From positions 1-59,304 of IMG/VR virus record IMGVR_UViG_3300005805_000098: a stretch of DNA of 59,304 nt; one strand, written 5' to 3'. Shown here piece by piece: positions 477 through 59,289 of the stretch. Numbering within the stretch: position 1 is the first letter of the stretch; each line of letters begins with the position of its first letter. A model generated the notes under the pieces. The model saw only the letters and a program-made list of their open reading frames with translations. It was not told where the DNA came from and did no database searches. The DNA comes from a virus. Its lineage: Duplodnaviria > Caudoviricetes. The position numbers were made by a program, and so were the translations under genes.

Positions 477-519
477 TTGTGTCTGGGAGCCATACTCCTT
501 CTTTGGCTCCCAGACATAA
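477..519 (+). promoter_or_regulatory. Stem-loop after capsid gene with anti-SD-like loop
   Basis: Perfect 12-bp stem TGTCTGGGAGCC (480-491) / GGCTCCCAGACA (505-516), loop ATACTCCTTCTTT, no U-tract. Confidence 0.6.
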
Positions 520-549
520 ATAACTACACAACTTAGGAGAACAAATACC

Positions 550-933
550 GTGGCAAATAAAGCAACAAGTCCATTGGATGCAACAGGAGTTGCAGCCGAA
601 AGAGCAGCAAAGAAGAATGCTGCAGAATTAAAGAAGCGACAAGAAGAACTTTCTGTTGCTAATCAGTTAGAGGCAGAATCTCTTGAAAAAGATGTCTTTG
701 ACCCAAAGAAACCAGACGCTCCACTTGTATTAGATGAGATTGAGGACGTCGGAGTATCAGTGTCGAATGAGTACGTAGTCATTCGAACAATTACAGACAT
801 TGATGACATGACTTTTGGTGTCGTAAATGGAACTCCGCAAAGTTATTCTTTTAAATCGGGTGTTAAGTACCGTGTTCCACGGCACATCGCTGATTATTTA
901 GAGCAACTTGGGTACATTTGGCGGCCCAACTAA
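550..933 (+). CDS. Hypothetical head-associated protein
   Basis: 127-aa ORF with AGGAG SD, directly downstream of the capsid gene. Confidence 0.6.
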   Translation: MANKATSPLDATGVAAERAAKKNAAELKKRQEELSVANQLEAESLEKDVFDPKKPDAPLVLDEIEDVGVSVSNEYVVIRTITDIDDMTFGVVNGTPQSYSFKSGVKYRVPRHIADYLEQLGYIWRPN

Positions 934-946
934 GCCGTCGCAAGTA

Positions 947-1001
947 GTTCGTCCCTCAACTGGTTCCCGCCCTCCTCCCAGTTGGGGGTCGGACCTTTTT
1001 T
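947..1001 (+). terminator. Intrinsic terminator with CCTCCTC loop
   Basis: Stem CCCTCAACTGG / CCAGTTGGGGG, 14-nt loop TTCCCGCCCTCCTC, followed by TTTTTT. Confidence 0.7.
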
Positions 1002-1058
1002 GCGCTGTGAAATTGGCAATTACAAGAGAGAATTGTCACAACTAGTTTTGGAGGTTCC

Positions 1059-2451: not shown

Positions 2452-4902
2452 GTGGCACGTAAATATTTAACCCCAATTGATTTAACTAAGTTAGAACTTC
2501 AGAATGCTCGAATTCAAAACTTAGCAACAGCACCAGGAAGCCCAGTAGTTGGTCAAGTCTACTTTGACACTGCTCTTGGATTTTTACGTGTATGGAATGG
2601 TACTGCTTGGGTAAACACTAGCGAAGGTGCGCAAGGCACACAGGGAACTCAAGGCTCTGTTGGTGCAACTGGTGCGCAGGGAACACAAGGAACTGCTGGT
2701 GCGCAAGGTCTTGATGGTGCTAACGGTTCTCAAGGAACTCAGGGAACTCAGGGCACTCAAGGTACTGAAGGTACACAGGGAACTCAAGGTACGCAGGGAA
2801 CTGCTGGTGCTCAAGGTTTAGATGGTGCTAATGGTGCACAGGGCACTCAAGGTACTCAAGGAACTCAAGGCACCGAAGGTGCACAGGGTGTACAAGGAAC
2901 TCAAGGAACGCAAGGCGTTCAGGGCACAGAAGGTCAACAGGGCGTTCAAGGAACTGAAGGTACACAAGGTACACAAGGAACTCTTGGTGCACAAGGAACT
3001 CAAGGAACTGTAGGTTCTCAAGGTACTCAAGGCACTGAAGGTGCGCAAGGTACAACTGGTGCTCAAGGCACTGAAGGTGCACAAGGCACACAGGGAACAA
3101 CGGGTACACAAGGTGTACAAGGTAAAGAGGGTTCGTTCGGTGGTATCTCGTTTGAGTACAACTACGATGCCGTTTATACAATGGCAGACCCAGGCAGTAC
3201 TTATATTCGCCTAAATAATTCTTCAAATTCTTCAGCAACAGCACTTGCAATTGATGACGTAAATGCTGCTTCAGTAGATATTCATCCATATCTACAAACA
3301 ATTGATGACTCTACTTCAACAATCAAAGGTCACGTAAAGATTTCTCTAAAGTCAGATAGCAATACGTTTGCTCTCTACACAATTAGCAACGTAACAGATA
3401 ACGCAACATGGTTTGAAGTATCAATTGCATATGTATCTGGTAACGGTTCGTTTACAGATGAAGATGATGTAATTTTAACCTTCGCTCGCACTGGTGACGT
3501 TGGTGCTCAGGGTACGCAAGGCGTACAGGGTACGACTGGTGCACAGGGAGCAGAAGGAGCGCAAGGCACACAGGGCACCGAAGGTGCACAGGGTGCTGAA
3601 GGAACGCAAGGCGTTCAAGGAACTGAAGGTGCTCAAGGAACTCAAGGAACCGAAGGTGCGCAAGGAACCCAAGGAACCCAGGGCACTCAAGGAGTCGAAG
3701 GACAACAGGGAGTACAAGGAACTCAGGGTACGCAAGGCGTTCAGGGTACAGAAGGTACACAAGGCGCTCAGGGTACTGAAGGTATTCAAGGTCTTGACGG
3801 TGCGCAAGGTGCGCAGGGAACTCAGGGTACGCAAGGTACAGAGGGTTCACAGGGTACGGAAGGTCAGCAGGGAACCCAAGGTACACAGGGAGTACAGGGA
3901 ACTGTAGGTGCGCAAGGCACACAGGGAACTCAAGGTACTGATGGAACTCAGGGTGCTGAAGGTGCTCAAGGTTCTCAAGGAACTGTTGGTGCACAGGGAG
4001 TCCAAGGAACCACTGGTACACAGGGTGTACAGGGTTCAACTGGTACTCAAGGTACTGCTGGTTCTGATGCCACTGTTACAGAAGGTTTTGGTATCCAAGT
4101 TGTTGCAGGTCAAGTATCTGTTGATACAACAGAGATTGCGACTCGTGACTATGTAGATGCAACCGCCCAAGGATTAGATGTAAAAATATCAGTACGTGCT
4201 GCTTCTTCTACCGCACTTGCTGCATACACCTTCTCAAATACAGGTGGTGGAACTCTTACAGCAGATGCTAATGGAGCCCTATCTATAGGTGGAGTAAGCC
4301 CTGCGCAAGGACAGCGTGTACTTGTCAAGGATGAGGCTGGTGCTAATCAGAAGTACAACGGTATTTATATCGTCGCAACTGCTGGTGATGGAAGCACTCC
4401 ATGGGAATTGATGCGTGCAGATGACGCGAACTCTTCAGCAGATGTAACTGCAGGTATGTTTACCTTCGTAGAAGAAGGAACTTACGCAGATACTGGCTGG
4501 GTCCTTTCAACCAACCAGACAATCACTCTCAATACAACTGCCCTAACATTCACACAGTTCTCAGGCGCAGGCGCGTACACATGGGGCGATGGTCTATCTA
4601 ATACTGGTACGACAATCAATGTTGGCGCTGGTACAGGTATTACCGTTGACTCAAGCAACGTAAACGTTGACACAACAGTGGTTGCTCGTAAATTCACAAC
4701 AACAATTGGTGATGGAAGCGCAACTTCATTTACAATTACACACAATCTTGGAACACGTGGAGTGATGGTCTCTGTATACAACGCAGCCTCTGCCTATGAA
4801 GAGGTTGTTGTTGATGTAGAAAAGACAACCACAAACACAGTAACAGTCAAGTTTGCTGAAGCCCCTGCTAATAATGCTTACGTAGTGGCGGTAGTTGGCT
4901 AA
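2452..4902 (+). CDS. Collagen-like fibre protein (816 aa) with two (Gly-X-Gln)n tracts
   Basis: Long GTQ/GAQ/GVQ/GTE triplet tracts. C-terminal fibre domain (GLDVKISVRAA...RVLVKDE...NGIY...RADDA) is seen in phage fibre/decoration proteins. Confidence 0.8.
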   Translation: MARKYLTPIDLTKLELQNARIQNLATAPGSPVVGQVYFDTALGFLRVWNGTAWVNTSEGAQGTQGTQGSVGATGAQGTQGTAGAQGLDGANGSQGTQGTQGTQGTEGTQGTQGTQGTAGAQGLDGANGAQGTQGTQGTQGTEGAQGVQGTQGTQGVQGTEGQQGVQGTEGTQGTQGTLGAQGTQGTVGSQGTQGTEGAQGTTGAQGTEGAQGTQGTTGTQGVQGKEGSFGGISFEYNYDAVYTMADPGSTYIRLNNSSNSSATALAIDDVNAASVDIHPYLQTIDDSTSTIKGHVKISLKSDSNTFALYTISNVTDNATWFEVSIAYVSGNGSFTDEDDVILTFARTGDVGAQGTQGVQGTTGAQGAEGAQGTQGTEGAQGAEGTQGVQGTEGAQGTQGTEGAQGTQGTQGTQGVEGQQGVQGTQGTQGVQGTEGTQGAQGTEGIQGLDGAQGAQGTQGTQGTEGSQGTEGQQGTQGTQGVQGTVGAQGTQGTQGTDGTQGAEGAQGSQGTVGAQGVQGTTGTQGVQGSTGTQGTAGSDATVTEGFGIQVVAGQVSVDTTEIATRDYVDATAQGLDVKISVRAASSTALAAYTFSNTGGGTLTADANGALSIGGVSPAQGQRVLVKDEAGANQKYNGIYIVATAGDGSTPWELMRADDANSSADVTAGMFTFVEEGTYADTGWVLSTNQTITLNTTALTFTQFSGAGAYTWGDGLSNTGTTINVGAGTGITVDSSNVNVDTTVVARKFTTTIGDGSATSFTITHNLGTRGVMVSVYNAASAYEEVVVDVEKTTTNTVTVKFAEAPANNAYVVAVVG
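2626..3141 (+). repeat. 9-bp degenerate tandem repeat (Gly-X-Gln tract 1)
   Basis: CAAGGAACT/CAGGGAACT-type units; boundaries approximate. Confidence 0.9.
3493..4063 (+). repeat. 9-bp degenerate tandem repeat (Gly-X-Gln tract 2)
   Basis: Same unit as tract 1; boundaries approximate. Confidence 0.9.
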
Positions 4903-5187: not shown

Positions 5188-6471
5188 ATGGCAGTCCGTA
5201 TACAACTTAGACGCGGTACCGCAGCAGAATGGTCTGCAAATAACCCAACTCTTGCTGCTGGTGAAGTTGGCGTTGAAACAGACACGCTCAAAATAAAGAT
5301 TGGTAATGGCTCCACTGCTTGGAACTCACTCGGTTATGGTGGACTACAGGGTCTTCAAGGAACCACAGGCGCACAGGGAGTACAGGGAACTCAGGGAGTT
5401 CAGGGAGTACAAGGTGTACAGGGAAGTCTTGGTGAGACTGGAGCGCAAGGCACTCAGGGAACCCAAGGCACTCAGGGAACCCAAGGCACACAGGGAACTC
5501 AGGGAACTCAGGGTCTTGATGGTCAAACTGGTGCCCAAGGTACACAGGGCGTACAGGGAGAGATTGGTTCTCAAGGTACTCAAGGCGTGCAGGGAACTTT
5601 TGGTACCCAAGGCACTCAGGGAACTCAAGGAGTACAAGGAGAAATTGGTTCTCAGGGAGTTCAAGGAGTTCAAGGTACTCAGGGAACTCAAGGAACCCAG
5701 GGAACTCAAGGAGTCGAAGGTCAGCAAGGAACCCAGGGAACTCAAGGTACCCAAGGTACACAGGGCACCCAAGGAACTCAAGGAACTCAAGGTACTCTTG
5801 GAACTCAAGGTGCTACTGGTACATTCGGTGGAGAAACCCACGAATATAACTTCCTAACTGATACAGGTAATACTGACCCAGGAAACGGAAACTTCAAGTT
5901 CAACAATGCAACAATTTCAAGTGCTACTGTTTTGTACATTGACAATGTTGACTTTAATACAAACGATATTACACAGTTACTTCAAACAATTGATGACTCT
6001 ACTTCTGGAATTAAGGGAACTATCAAGTTCACTGAAGTTGGAGATGCAAATAGTTTTGCCTTCTTCCAAATTACAGGCACACATACGCACGAGAGCGGTG
6101 GAGCATACTTCAGCGTTCCTATCGCACACGTAACTGGAACTCTTTCAGTTGTAAACAATGATAATGTTTACATTACCTTTGCTCGTGTCGGTGATAAGGG
6201 TGACACTGGAGCCCAAGGAACTCAAGGAACCCAAGGAACTCAGGGAGTACAAGGCGTACAGGGTGTGCAAGGAGTTCAAGGAGTTCAAGGCGAAACAGGA
6301 ACTCAAGGAGCCCAAGGTACTCAAGGAACGCTCGGTACTCAAGGAGTTCAAGGCACACAGGGAATCCAAGGTACTGAAGGTATTGGAACTCAGGGTACTC
6401 AGGGAACCGCTGGAACATCCCCTTCAGGAACAGCAGCCGTTGCTGATGTACTGATGCTAGGCGGTATGTAA
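5188..6471 (+). CDS. Collagen-like fibre with N-terminal Mtd/hyaluronidase-N-like anchor
   Basis: IQLRRGTAAEW..NPTLAAGEVGVETDT.KIKIGNG.TAWNSL N-terminal motif, plus two Gly-X-Gln tracts. Confidence 0.8.
   Translation: MAVRIQLRRGTAAEWSANNPTLAAGEVGVETDTLKIKIGNGSTAWNSLGYGGLQGLQGTTGAQGVQGTQGVQGVQGVQGSLGETGAQGTQGTQGTQGTQGTQGTQGTQGLDGQTGAQGTQGVQGEIGSQGTQGVQGTFGTQGTQGTQGVQGEIGSQGVQGVQGTQGTQGTQGTQGVEGQQGTQGTQGTQGTQGTQGTQGTQGTLGTQGATGTFGGETHEYNFLTDTGNTDPGNGNFKFNNATISSATVLYIDNVDFNTNDITQLLQTIDDSTSGIKGTIKFTEVGDANSFAFFQITGTHTHESGGAYFSVPIAHVTGTLSVVNNDNVYITFARVGDKGDTGAQGTQGTQGTQGVQGVQGVQGVQGVQGETGTQGAQGTQGTLGTQGVQGTQGIQGTEGIGTQGTQGTAGTSPSGTAAVADVLMLGGM
5341..5832 (+). repeat. 9-bp degenerate tandem repeat (Gly-X-Gln tract 3)
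   Basis: GTQ/GVQ codon repeats; a shorter tract lies at about 6190-6432. Confidence 0.9.
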
Positions 6472-41345: not shown

Positions 41346-41383
41346 GTGGGAGAGCCTGTTACCTCCATTTCAGGCTCTCTCAC
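41346..41383 (+). promoter_or_regulatory. Stem-loop with ACCTCC loop before the DNA polymerase RBS
   Basis: GTGGGAGAGCCTG / CAGGCTCTCTCAC 13-bp stem (one G-U), loop TTACCTCCATTT. Confidence 0.6.
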
Positions 41384-41402
41384 TTTAAAAGAGAGGGTTG
41401 TT

Positions 41403-43409
41403 ATGAATATCATTACAACAAAAGAACAGTTAGAAGACTTAGTTGCTTATTACCAAGAAGTAGATGCATTTGCATTTGATATTGAATCTGTTGGAGAAAA
41501 TCGCATTCAGCCTGTCGTAAACGATGTACTGTGGATTTCGTTAGCAACAGAAGAACGTACAGACGTCATCCCTATGGGTCATCCAAATGGTGAGTTTTTA
41601 CATTGGGACAAAGAACTGTTGCTTAGTGGTCAGCGAAAGTTAGCAGCAGGAAAAGAAGTGAAAGAAACTGACTATTCAAAGAACCAAGCAAAGTGGAAAC
41701 CAGTATTTGGTCCTGCTCCTGAGCAATTACTGCCTGGAGATGTTTTCAAGGCTTTGAAGCCACTGTTCTTTAGTGATAAGTTAAAAATAGGTCACAATGT
41801 AAAGTTTGATTTAAAATCAATTGCAAAGTATTACCGTGGCGTTGTTCCTTATAAGCCATTCTTTGACACGATGATGGCTGGGTTTATCATCGACAACAGA
41901 CTTAGGGGATATCTTGGGTTAGCAGATTGTGCTAAACGAGAATTGGGCATAGTAGTTGAAAAAGGTGTTGGAGCACAAGTAGAGATTCATTCGTTCAGTG
42001 ATGTAGCAAAGTATTCTGGTTTAGATGCTGAGGCTACTTACGCCTTGTACAAGGTTTATAAACCTAAATTAGAGGGTGATTTGAGTCGTGTGTGGGGTCT
42101 TGAGATGGATGTCCTTGCAGCCTTATGCGATATGGAATTAACAGGCGCTAATATAGATGTGGTTGAACTTACCAAGTTGAAGAAACGCTTAGATAAAGAC
42201 ATTGACGATGCCAAAGCCAGAGCCTGGAAGTTAGTTGGCAGACCTTTTGCAATGAACTCTGTACAGGAGAAGCAGAAGTTGTTGTTCTCTCCAAAAGAAG
42301 AGGGCGGTAGAGGAATCAAGCCAAATCTTCGCATTAAGATTGCGCTTACTACTAAGGGTCAAGAGGTGGCTATGACTGCCCCAATGAAGTTAGGTATACA
42401 GCATTACTCAGTGTCTTCAGACGCTTTAGAGTTTTACCGAAGCAAAGATGAACTAGTAGACGCCATTCTTGAATACCAAGATTTAAATAAATTAATGACA
42501 ACTTATGTAATGCCCTATTTAGGTGGAGAGGTCACTCACACAGTTATGGGCAAAACAAAAGTTACTGAAAAGAAATCGCTTTTAATAAATGGCAAAGTAC
42601 ACACAAACTTCAAACCACACGGAGCAGAGACTGGTCGTTTCTCTAGTAGCGACCCAAATCTACAGAACATTCCAAGTGGTGGGGATTACGGCACTCTTAT
42701 CCGCAACATGTTTATAGCACCACCTGGATACAAGTTAGTAGTGGCTGATTACAGTCAGATTGAGCCTCGCATTATTGCTTCCTTCTCAGGTGACCCGATT
42801 ATGATGAATAACTATTTAGAGGGTGGCGATATTTACACCACTATCGGTGACACGATGGGCGTTGAGAGGAAGGCTGGTAAAGTCTTAGTATTGGCTATGT
42901 CTTACGGAGTAGGGCCCGAAAAGATTGCTCAGAGCATCGGTTGTACAGTAAAGGATGCAAAGGATTTATTAGACCGCTTTAGCAAACAGTTCAACGATAT
43001 AGCAAAATATCGAGCACGAGTGATTCGTATGGCTGCTGCACAGGCACCTACGCCATTTGTGTCCACCTTGTTTGGTCGTCGTCGTTATATTCCTGATTTA
43101 AAATCTAGAGACCAAGGATTGAAGTCCAGGGCAGAACGTCAGGCTTTTAACACAGTAATTCAGGGTTCTGCAGCAGACGTTATGAAATTAGCCATTATAC
43201 GGGCTCATTCTTGCTTTTTAGATGAGCCAGGGGCTAATGTCATATTGACCGTGCACGATGAATTGGTTACCGTTGCCCGTGAAGATTTAGCGGAAGATGT
43301 AGCAGAAGCAATCCGCGAGTCAATGGAAGGCATCAAACTTCCAGAGATTACAGTTCCGCTTATTGCTGAAGCAAAAATAGTAGACAGATGGGGAGAGGCA
43401 AAGGACTAA
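41403..43409 (+). CDS. polA: Family A DNA polymerase (3'-5' exonuclease + polymerase, no 5' nuclease)
   Basis: FDIES, GHNVKFD, YSGLDA; TGRFSSSDPNLQNIP, ADYSQIEPR, RKAGKVLVLAMSYG, TVHDE. Start placed at ATG 41403 after GAGAGGG. Confidence 0.95.
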   Translation: MNIITTKEQLEDLVAYYQEVDAFAFDIESVGENRIQPVVNDVLWISLATEERTDVIPMGHPNGEFLHWDKELLLSGQRKLAAGKEVKETDYSKNQAKWKPVFGPAPEQLLPGDVFKALKPLFFSDKLKIGHNVKFDLKSIAKYYRGVVPYKPFFDTMMAGFIIDNRLRGYLGLADCAKRELGIVVEKGVGAQVEIHSFSDVAKYSGLDAEATYALYKVYKPKLEGDLSRVWGLEMDVLAALCDMELTGANIDVVELTKLKKRLDKDIDDAKARAWKLVGRPFAMNSVQEKQKLLFSPKEEGGRGIKPNLRIKIALTTKGQEVAMTAPMKLGIQHYSVSSDALEFYRSKDELVDAILEYQDLNKLMTTYVMPYLGGEVTHTVMGKTKVTEKKSLLINGKVHTNFKPHGAETGRFSSSDPNLQNIPSGGDYGTLIRNMFIAPPGYKLVVADYSQIEPRIIASFSGDPIMMNNYLEGGDIYTTIGDTMGVERKAGKVLVLAMSYGVGPEKIAQSIGCTVKDAKDLLDRFSKQFNDIAKYRARVIRMAAAQAPTPFVSTLFGRRRYIPDLKSRDQGLKSRAERQAFNTVIQGSAADVMKLAIIRAHSCFLDEPGANVILTVHDELVTVAREDLAEDVAEAIRESMEGIKLPEITVPLIAEAKIVDRWGEAKD

Positions 43410-59252: not shown

Positions 59253-59256
59253 GGAA

Positions 59257-59289
59257 AAAGCCCCTCGTAATTGAGGGGCTTTCTCTTTT
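59257..59289 (+). terminator. Intrinsic terminator after nrdJ
   Basis: AAAGCCCCTC-GTAATT-GAGGGGCTTT followed by a T-rich tract. Confidence 0.85.

Follow-up and report, generated by a model that had tools for sequence, protein, structure and literature searches.

Intrinsic terminators and stabilizer hairpins are known from T-phi, after gene 10 of phage T7, and from the puf and malEFG operons. A pyrimidine motif in a 3' untranslated region (UTR) may also reach back to the start of its own message, as in icaR of Staphylococcus aureus, where a 3'UTR anti-Shine-Dalgarno (anti-SD) motif reportedly pairs with the same mRNA's Shine-Dalgarno (SD) sequence, and in hbs of Bacillus subtilis, for which an interaction between the 5' and 3' UTRs is likewise said to exist. 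Anti-SD motifs displayed in hairpin loops have so far been known from stand-alone bacterial small RNAs (sRNAs), not from terminator or intercistronic hairpins of phage late operons, and no description of loop-displayed anti-SD motifs on late-operon hairpins of phages was found in open-access papers and preprints. The cuckoo RNAs of Alphaproteobacteria (RSs0680/CcsR, SmelC397, and others) are stand-alone sRNAs with two to four adjacent hairpins and the loop motif CCUCCUCCC in each (PMC4615179). The 6C sRNA of Actinobacteria has C-rich loops that bind G-rich ribosome-binding sites (RBSs), and its repression of translation is independent of any RNA chaperone (PMC6486639). Here we describe two hairpins with large anti-SD-like loops that flank a small gene, X, directly after the major capsid protein gene of an uncultured aquatic phage (Duplodnaviria; Caudoviricetes) represented by the viral record IMGVR_UViG_3300005805_000098. 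The whole 59,304-nt (59.3-kb) stretch is referred to as the window; its estimated completeness is 61%, its G+C content is about 0.44, and its start falls inside the major capsid gene.

Hairpin 1 (477-519) lies on the plus strand, as do hairpins 2 and 3, gene X, the genes adjoining it, and polA, together with all of their parts given below. Arms at 477-492 and 504-519 form a 16-bp stem that carries an 11-nt loop at 493-503, TACTCCTTCTT. The segment 492-504 reads ATACTCCTTCTTT and contains CTCCT at 495-499, which is complementary to the AGGAG SD sequence of X (535-539) and belongs to a conserved, anti-SD-like loop core, CTCCTT (495-500). Hairpin 2 (947-994) is built from outer arms at 947-951 and 990-994 and inner arms at 953-963 and 978-988, 16 pairs in total, around a 14-nt loop at 964-977, TTCCCGCCCTCCTC. 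The CCTCC of this loop (971-975) has a GGAGG partner at 1050-1054, the SD sequence of the next gene. The loop and RBS letters that a preliminary description had cited for the two hairpins were all found in place. The hairpins are 430 nt apart, and the only letters common to their loops are CTCCT, at different positions within each loop. Folding of 475-520 (hairpin 1) gave -29.2 kcal/mol (z = -9.1) and folding of 945-1000 (hairpin 2) gave -26.0 kcal/mol (z = -4.9), with 0 of 200 shuffles as stable in either case. Random 13-14-nt loops of window composition contained CTCCT or CCTCC in 0.8-0.9% of trials, and when the loops' own letters were shuffled, the motif arose in 6% of cases for loop 1 and in 48% for loop 2. 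The hairpins, and the motif when set against window composition, are thus beyond chance, whereas the motif given the loops' own letters is not.

Relatives were collected by searching viral contigs with the X protein, which resulted in 114 relatives, the best 80 of which were kept. All 33 distinct upstream regions from this search retain hairpin 1 with TACTCCTT in its loop, and all 36 usable distinct downstream regions retain hairpin 2 with GCCCTCCTC; one of the 37 downstream regions was too short. A pooled set of variants was also assembled, in which loci were fetched by protein, duplicates were removed, and X was at least 60% identical to that of the window (range 65-100%). All 81 distinct variants had a loop 1 that matches NNCYCCTTYYT (75 with CTCCTT and 6 with CCCCTT), and loop 2 was TTYCYGCCCTCCTC in 78 of 78. 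The stems changed in a paired manner: among 33 distinct 31-nt cores of hairpin 1, standard pairs occupied 329 of 330 cells and double changes occurred at 8 of the 10 loop-proximal pairs, and compensatory changes occurred at 9 of the 13 consensus pairs of hairpin 2. The alignment used for covariation of hairpin 2 includes loci retrieved by exact match to a 22-mer that covers the loop and the pairs closing it; invariance of loop 2 in those loci is thus by construction, whereas covariation of the outer stem is not. Conserved loops on covarying stems were the test set by the preliminary description for its own reading, and both hairpins display them. Owing to G-U pairs, the plus strand gave the more stable fold in 54 of 68 comparisons for hairpin 1 and in 31 of 39 for hairpin 2, which indicates that the structures belong to the RNA of the coding strand.

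Across 74 distinct records, mean pairwise identity was 0.914 for loop 1 and 0.982 for loop 2, compared with 0.74-0.86 for the stem arms, 0.866 for codon positions 1 and 2 of X, and 0.611 for its codon position 3. In a deeper clade (L447-L457), an identical loop 1 and a loop 2 with two differences sit on stems that differ completely (GGAAGAGTCCC and GGTTACTCCTCTAG). As the loops are conserved while their stems covary, loops 1 and 2 are under sequence-specific selection and very probably have a function.

The locus shares several properties with the cuckoo RNAs, namely stems with compensatory changes, a conserved anti-SD-like loop, and an exact copy of the 9-mer CCUCCUCCC that defines the cuckoo loop (PMC4615179). 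This copy (CCTCCTCCC, 971-979) extends from loop 2 into the stem, the top of which holds its final two letters. The cuckoo 9-mer is present in each loop of that family, whereas in the phage hairpin 1 has UACUCCUUCUU, with UACUCCUUC as its motif, and hairpin 3 (before polA, described below) has UUACCUCCAUUU. Furthermore, the phage hairpins lie within an mRNA and are split by the 384-nt gene X, rather than being adjacent in a stand-alone sRNA, and hairpin 2 is a terminator. Hairpins 1 and 2 are outside the cuckoo family. At the gathering threshold, Rfam covariance models had 0 matches anywhere in the window, and a search of 300-1300 with E up to 10 returned only chance-level matches, the best being an unrelated snoRNA with 22.4 bits against a threshold of 45, and no 6C. 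Like the loops of 6C, the phage loops are complementary to G-rich RBS sequences (AGGAG or GGAGG), with which they may pair, and the nearest cultured relatives of the phage infect Actinobacteria; 6C, however, is a host sRNA gene, and the phage loops are C/U-rich rather than runs of C. As in icaR and hbs, a pyrimidine motif in a 3' region could pair with an SD sequence: in four complete relatives the capsid gene itself has AAAGGA as its SD region, to which UCCUU of loop 1 is complementary. Such a contact between the 5' and 3' ends of the phage message would be speculative, however, and would repress the protein that the phage needs most.

Hairpin 2 has the anatomy of an intrinsic terminator, a G+C-rich stem followed by a U tract, here a run of six T residues at 996-1001 whose columns are nearly invariant as T in the 74 aligned sequences. 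Hairpin 1 is instead followed by the A/C-rich ATAAATAAC and has no U tract. A terminator scan listed neither hairpin, and hairpin 2 was missed because the scan definition permits loops of 3-8 nt, a range that its 14-nt loop exceeds. Four complete relatives of 95-100 kb were scanned together with the window. No strong intergenic hairpins of the sense strand other than hairpins 1-3 (loops of 11-14 nt) recurred at the same gene positions in all of these genomes; a few further large-loop hairpins were found, each in a single genome, and terminator-like hairpins with T runs had loops of 4-6 nt. Anatomy and conservation together support well the assignment of hairpin 2 as the intrinsic terminator of a late transcript of the capsid gene and X, and of hairpin 1 as a non-terminating intercistronic element for which we infer the role of a barrier. 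Hairpin 2, with its stem and U tract after a highly expressed gene, and hairpin 1, between cistrons of unequal demand, are in this respect like the known terminators and stabilizers, from which they differ in their large (11-14 nt), sequence-conserved loops.

Contigs 85-99% alike were found in RNA libraries labeled as aquatic or freshwater metagenomes. All four runs that were examined had such contigs, and all 24 RNA runs listed contained only small shares of the query words. The contigs span hairpin 1 in all four runs (X1, 377-1002; X2, 434-780; X3, 1-869; X4, 1-1013), which is consistent with read-through, with the qualification that assembled contigs show no single transcripts and that carry-over of DNA is possible. 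The depth of capsid contigs relative to downstream contigs is not readable as expression, and an uncovered stretch at approximately 1260-1850 is uninformative.

Taking the observed hairpins, strand, covariation, loop conservation, and terminator anatomy as the starting point, we propose that the capsid gene and X would be co-transcribed on the plus strand late in infection and that hairpin 2 with its U tract would end this transcript, while hairpin 1 would shield the capsid message from 3' decay and set it apart from X. The large single-stranded pyrimidine loops, carried on variable stems, copy the anti-SD of 16S rRNA in their conserved cores (CUCCUU and CCUCCUC). A loop could act in cis, by pairing with the RBS of the next cistron and reducing its translation where transcripts read through, or in trans, if hairpin-ended 3' fragments accumulate and pair with the RBSs of other mRNAs. 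The simplest reading is that the loops pair with G-rich RBSs, whether in cis or in trans. Their shared core CUCCU lies within the anti-SD CCUCCU, and the cuckoo and 6C RNAs provide precedents. We hold this reading tentatively, with somewhat less than even confidence, and its mechanism and direction are conjectural. The linker from hairpin 1 to the SD of X (520-534) is G-free and A/C-rich; across relatives, linkers are 12-28 nt long with 0.6% G, and 76 of 83 distinct ones contain no G, which leaves the SD as the sole G-rich partner near the C/U loop 1. A G-free leader is compatible with masking of the SD by loop 1 and with an open, efficient RBS alike.

A number of observations weigh against RBS pairing. 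The loop-RBS duplexes have 5 bp each, with energies of -6.9 (loop 1) and -9.3 kcal/mol (loop 2), which were reached by 250 of 2000 (12.5%) and 277 of 2000 (13.9%) shuffled loops, respectively. Any anti-SD-like sequence complements any SD by definition. All 81 distinct variants have AGGAG as the SD of X, whatever the loop, so that loop and SD do not covary, and the six variants with CCCCTT set a C opposite an A without compensation. The loop-to-next-RBS pseudoknot suggested in the preliminary description was therefore not borne out, as neither covariation nor complementarity beyond chance was found for it. All 14 nt of loop 2 are conserved along with its CTGG/CCAG closing pairs; this exceeds what a 5-bp pairing needs and points to contact with a protein or to a more elaborate interaction. 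Because a U tract follows hairpin 2, most transcripts should end approximately 50 nt before the RBS at 1050. One contig (record 7 of run X1) ends at 1002, just past the T tract, and the X4 contig continues, although contigs cannot show transcript ends. An anti-SD RNA acting in trans would also strike the phage's own late genes. No longer partner for the loops, in the form of a conserved match of at least 8 nt beyond generic purine runs, was found in the window and the four complete relatives (with the loop 1 rows of G003 and G004 excluded). A further candidate partner, GGCGG at 920-924 within the 3' end of X, could pair with CCGCC in loop 2 but was rejected, as the Arg codon concerned varies among CGG, CGT, CGA, and CGC in 51 distinct tails.

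Variation among relatives weighs in the same direction. Loci fetched through hairpin 2 have 54 distinct forms of hairpin 1, of which 49 contain the motif and five do not (L198, L278, L261, L279, and L202). These five have a G+C-rich hairpin, three with a UUCG tetraloop and two with other loops, and all retain TAGGAGAA and an unchanged hairpin 2; they constitute a natural loss-of-loop experiment. In a high-GC clade, the loop is devoid of a C motif. BK-like relatives, including the Streptomyces phages BRock and Alone3, have a post-capsid hairpin with a U-rich tail and C-rich loops (GGATTCCCCTCA, CCCCT, CCCCTTG, and CTCCCCTC) that mismatch the local SDs (CAGGAGAA and TTGGAG), and these phages have no second hairpin after X. 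The mismatch indicates that the deep shared feature is a C-rich pyrimidine pentamer (CCCCT or CTCCT) and not complementarity to the SD. The preliminary description had also listed a third case before polA. This hairpin 3 (41346-41383) has 13-bp arms and the loop TTACCTCCATTT and is located 19 nt before the start of polA, a family A DNA polymerase gene (41403-43409; PF00476, E = 8.1e-86). As a hairpin it was confirmed: each of 60 distinct relatives keeps it, on 5' arms of 33 different sequences and with loops that are at least 70% pyrimidine in 55 of the 60, but the anti-SD 5-mer is present in only 13 of 60, all of which belong to the window's closest relatives. Of the other loop motifs, TTCCGTTT(C) is the most frequent and occurs in most relatives (L082-L161). 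Hairpin 3 is thus real and conserved, yet it offers no support for a general anti-SD rule.

Several of these observations are accommodated by loops that serve as binding sites for a phage or host protein, such as a single-strand pyrimidine binder with a KH, S1, or cold-shock fold. How efficiently transcription terminates, how stable the mRNA is, or how well the flanking cistrons are translated would then be set by this protein, and the likeness to the anti-SD would be incidental to a C/U-rich motif. Conservation that spans the 14 nt of loop 2 with CTGG/CCAG, and 8-11 nt of loop 1, is more than pairing of 5 bp explains; loop changes go uncompensated in the SD; the BK-like relatives share the C-rich pentamer rather than complementarity to the local SD; and the recurrent motif of hairpin 3, TTCCGTTT, looks like another recognition site of broadly similar nature. 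We nevertheless regard a protein as somewhat less likely than RBS pairing: no candidate was found, with X itself having no RNA-binding family match and only weak fold matches, the loops share just five letters that are differently placed, which is odd for one protein, and five lineages manage without loop 1. The loss of loop 1 in these five lineages, where a UUCG-type or other unrelated hairpin stands in its place, and the drift of the hairpin 3 loop would be expected if only the stems mattered, as terminator or decay barrier, and the loops were kept by ancestry or mutational bias. Hairpins are, after all, common after capsid genes. This explanation is very unlikely, however, as the loops (0.914 and 0.982) are more alike in the 74 records than third codon positions of X (0.611) or stems (0.74-0.86), the same loops sit on unrelated stems in the deeper clade, and terminator-like hairpins with T runs in these genomes have loops of only 4-6 nt.

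The sense of the motif leads to a different proposal, in which the loops would be decoys of the 3' tail of 16S rRNA, placed on abundant late transcripts, that soak up host factors recognizing or cutting the anti-SD. RNases of abortive-infection toxin-antitoxin systems would be possible targets, and ribosomes would be protected late in infection. CCTCCT in loop 2 (971-976) corresponds to the anti-SD CCUCCU as given in PMC12274833, the UCCUU of loop 1 fits the MazF-mt3 motif given there as U|CCUU, and toxins that cut the anti-SD region exist in Actinobacteria (PMC12274833). The mimic would have the sense of rRNA, in a single-stranded loop, on the most abundant late mRNA. A separate paper reportedly also deals with toxins that cut the anti-SD region in Actinobacteria. 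All of this amounts to likeness of motifs, no such toxin is known for the host, motifs of five letters are frequent in pyrimidine-rich loops (6% and 48% of the own-letter shuffles), and the CCCCTT and UUCG variants do without the motif. We consider decoys of this kind quite improbable. A wider form of the idea, by which late transcripts carry two mimics of the 16S tail on nuclease-resistant hairpins and titrate factors that bind or cleave the anti-SD (30S maturation factors included) or titrate SDs globally and so reprogram late translation, is improbable. A DNA-level element, in which inverted repeats with a conserved spacer would bind a protein or form a single-stranded DNA structure in replication or packaging, could account for inverted repeats with a conserved centre. 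It is hardly credible given that the arms vary by compensatory substitutions rather than being conserved, that G-T pairs favor the coding strand, that position and U tract fit transcription, and that the element occurs as a single copy per genome at a gene boundary.

The 3' end of the major capsid protein gene (2-469, with the stop codon TAG at 467-469) was assigned by its match to the PHROG major head protein family phrog_1357 (E = 2.2e-22) and by DNA similarity to capsid genes of Streptomyces phages. Gene X (550-933) has 384 nt and a GTG start and encodes a protein of 127 amino acids, homologues of which follow the capsid gene elsewhere too: X is always placed after the capsid gene, including in the Streptomyces phages Alone3 (gp81) and BRock (gp146). 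All 81 distinct variants share the GTG start. X matched no family in Pfam or PHROG. A structural model of modest quality (pLDDT 67) shows an extended helix at the N terminus and a small beta domain at the C terminus. Matches to the PDB were all weak (E of at least 0.08) and included GINS B-domains and, for lambda gpFI, its C-terminal domain (E = 0.14, TMt = 0.60), and the top matches in BFVD were uncharacterized proteins. The lambda gpFI gene likewise follows the capsid gene. The next gene (1059-2123) also starts with GTG, a codon that initiates 10 of the 80 genes predicted overall by crude gene calling, and the GTG starts of X and its neighbor fit low-level translation, which is suggestive only. 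Between hairpin 2 and this gene, the stretch TTACAAGAGAGAAT at 1020-1033 is kept in relatives (as TTACACGAGATGAT in many). It was considered as a repeated promoter-like motif and rejected, with 4 matches in the window against 3.0 expected. Downstream of the head genes, the ORFs at 2452-4902 and 5188-6471 are largely collagen-like Gly-X-Y repeats (GTQGTQG...) and probably encode tail fiber or decoration proteins.

Other hairpins were noted along the genomes. In the window, the 3' arm of hairpin 3 (41373-41381) can alternatively pair with the polA RBS, GAGAGGGTT (41391-41399), and hairpin 3 may be a translational operator of the polymerase gene. A palindromic G+C-rich hairpin at 59254-59285 (AAAGCCCCTCG TAAT TGAGGGGCTTT) is flanked by T-rich sequence on either strand, has a loop of 4-6 nt, is kept in G001, G004, and G005, and looks like a bidirectional terminator. 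A further conserved hairpin with variable loops (L164-L183) was observed just upstream of a gene whose product begins MTTI(V/I)G in three complete relatives (G003, 75815-75850; G004, 65713-65745; G005, 90394-90429).

Cultured relatives in a phage collection were limited to six records of Streptomyces phages, in which 5-12% of a 2200-nt query was matched with 79-81% identity. Because these DNA matches are all confined to the capsid gene, an actinobacterial host for this phage is suggested rather than established. At least 120 viral contigs contain the 22-mer of hairpin 2, a single time each, and it had 0 matches in a representative prokaryote genome collection of 185,579 species. An origin of hairpin 2 as a host element was rejected on the basis of this absence.

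The element described here is small and sharply defined, and it is more conserved than the protein encoded beside it, making it a testable case, from uncultured phages, of an RNA motif with a function. Should the loops regulate translation, this would reveal how a phage sets the ratio between its capsid protein and an assembly factor present in few copies. Should they instead be decoys, they would represent a new RNA-based form of takeover or counter-defense that is embedded in the 3' region of an mRNA.

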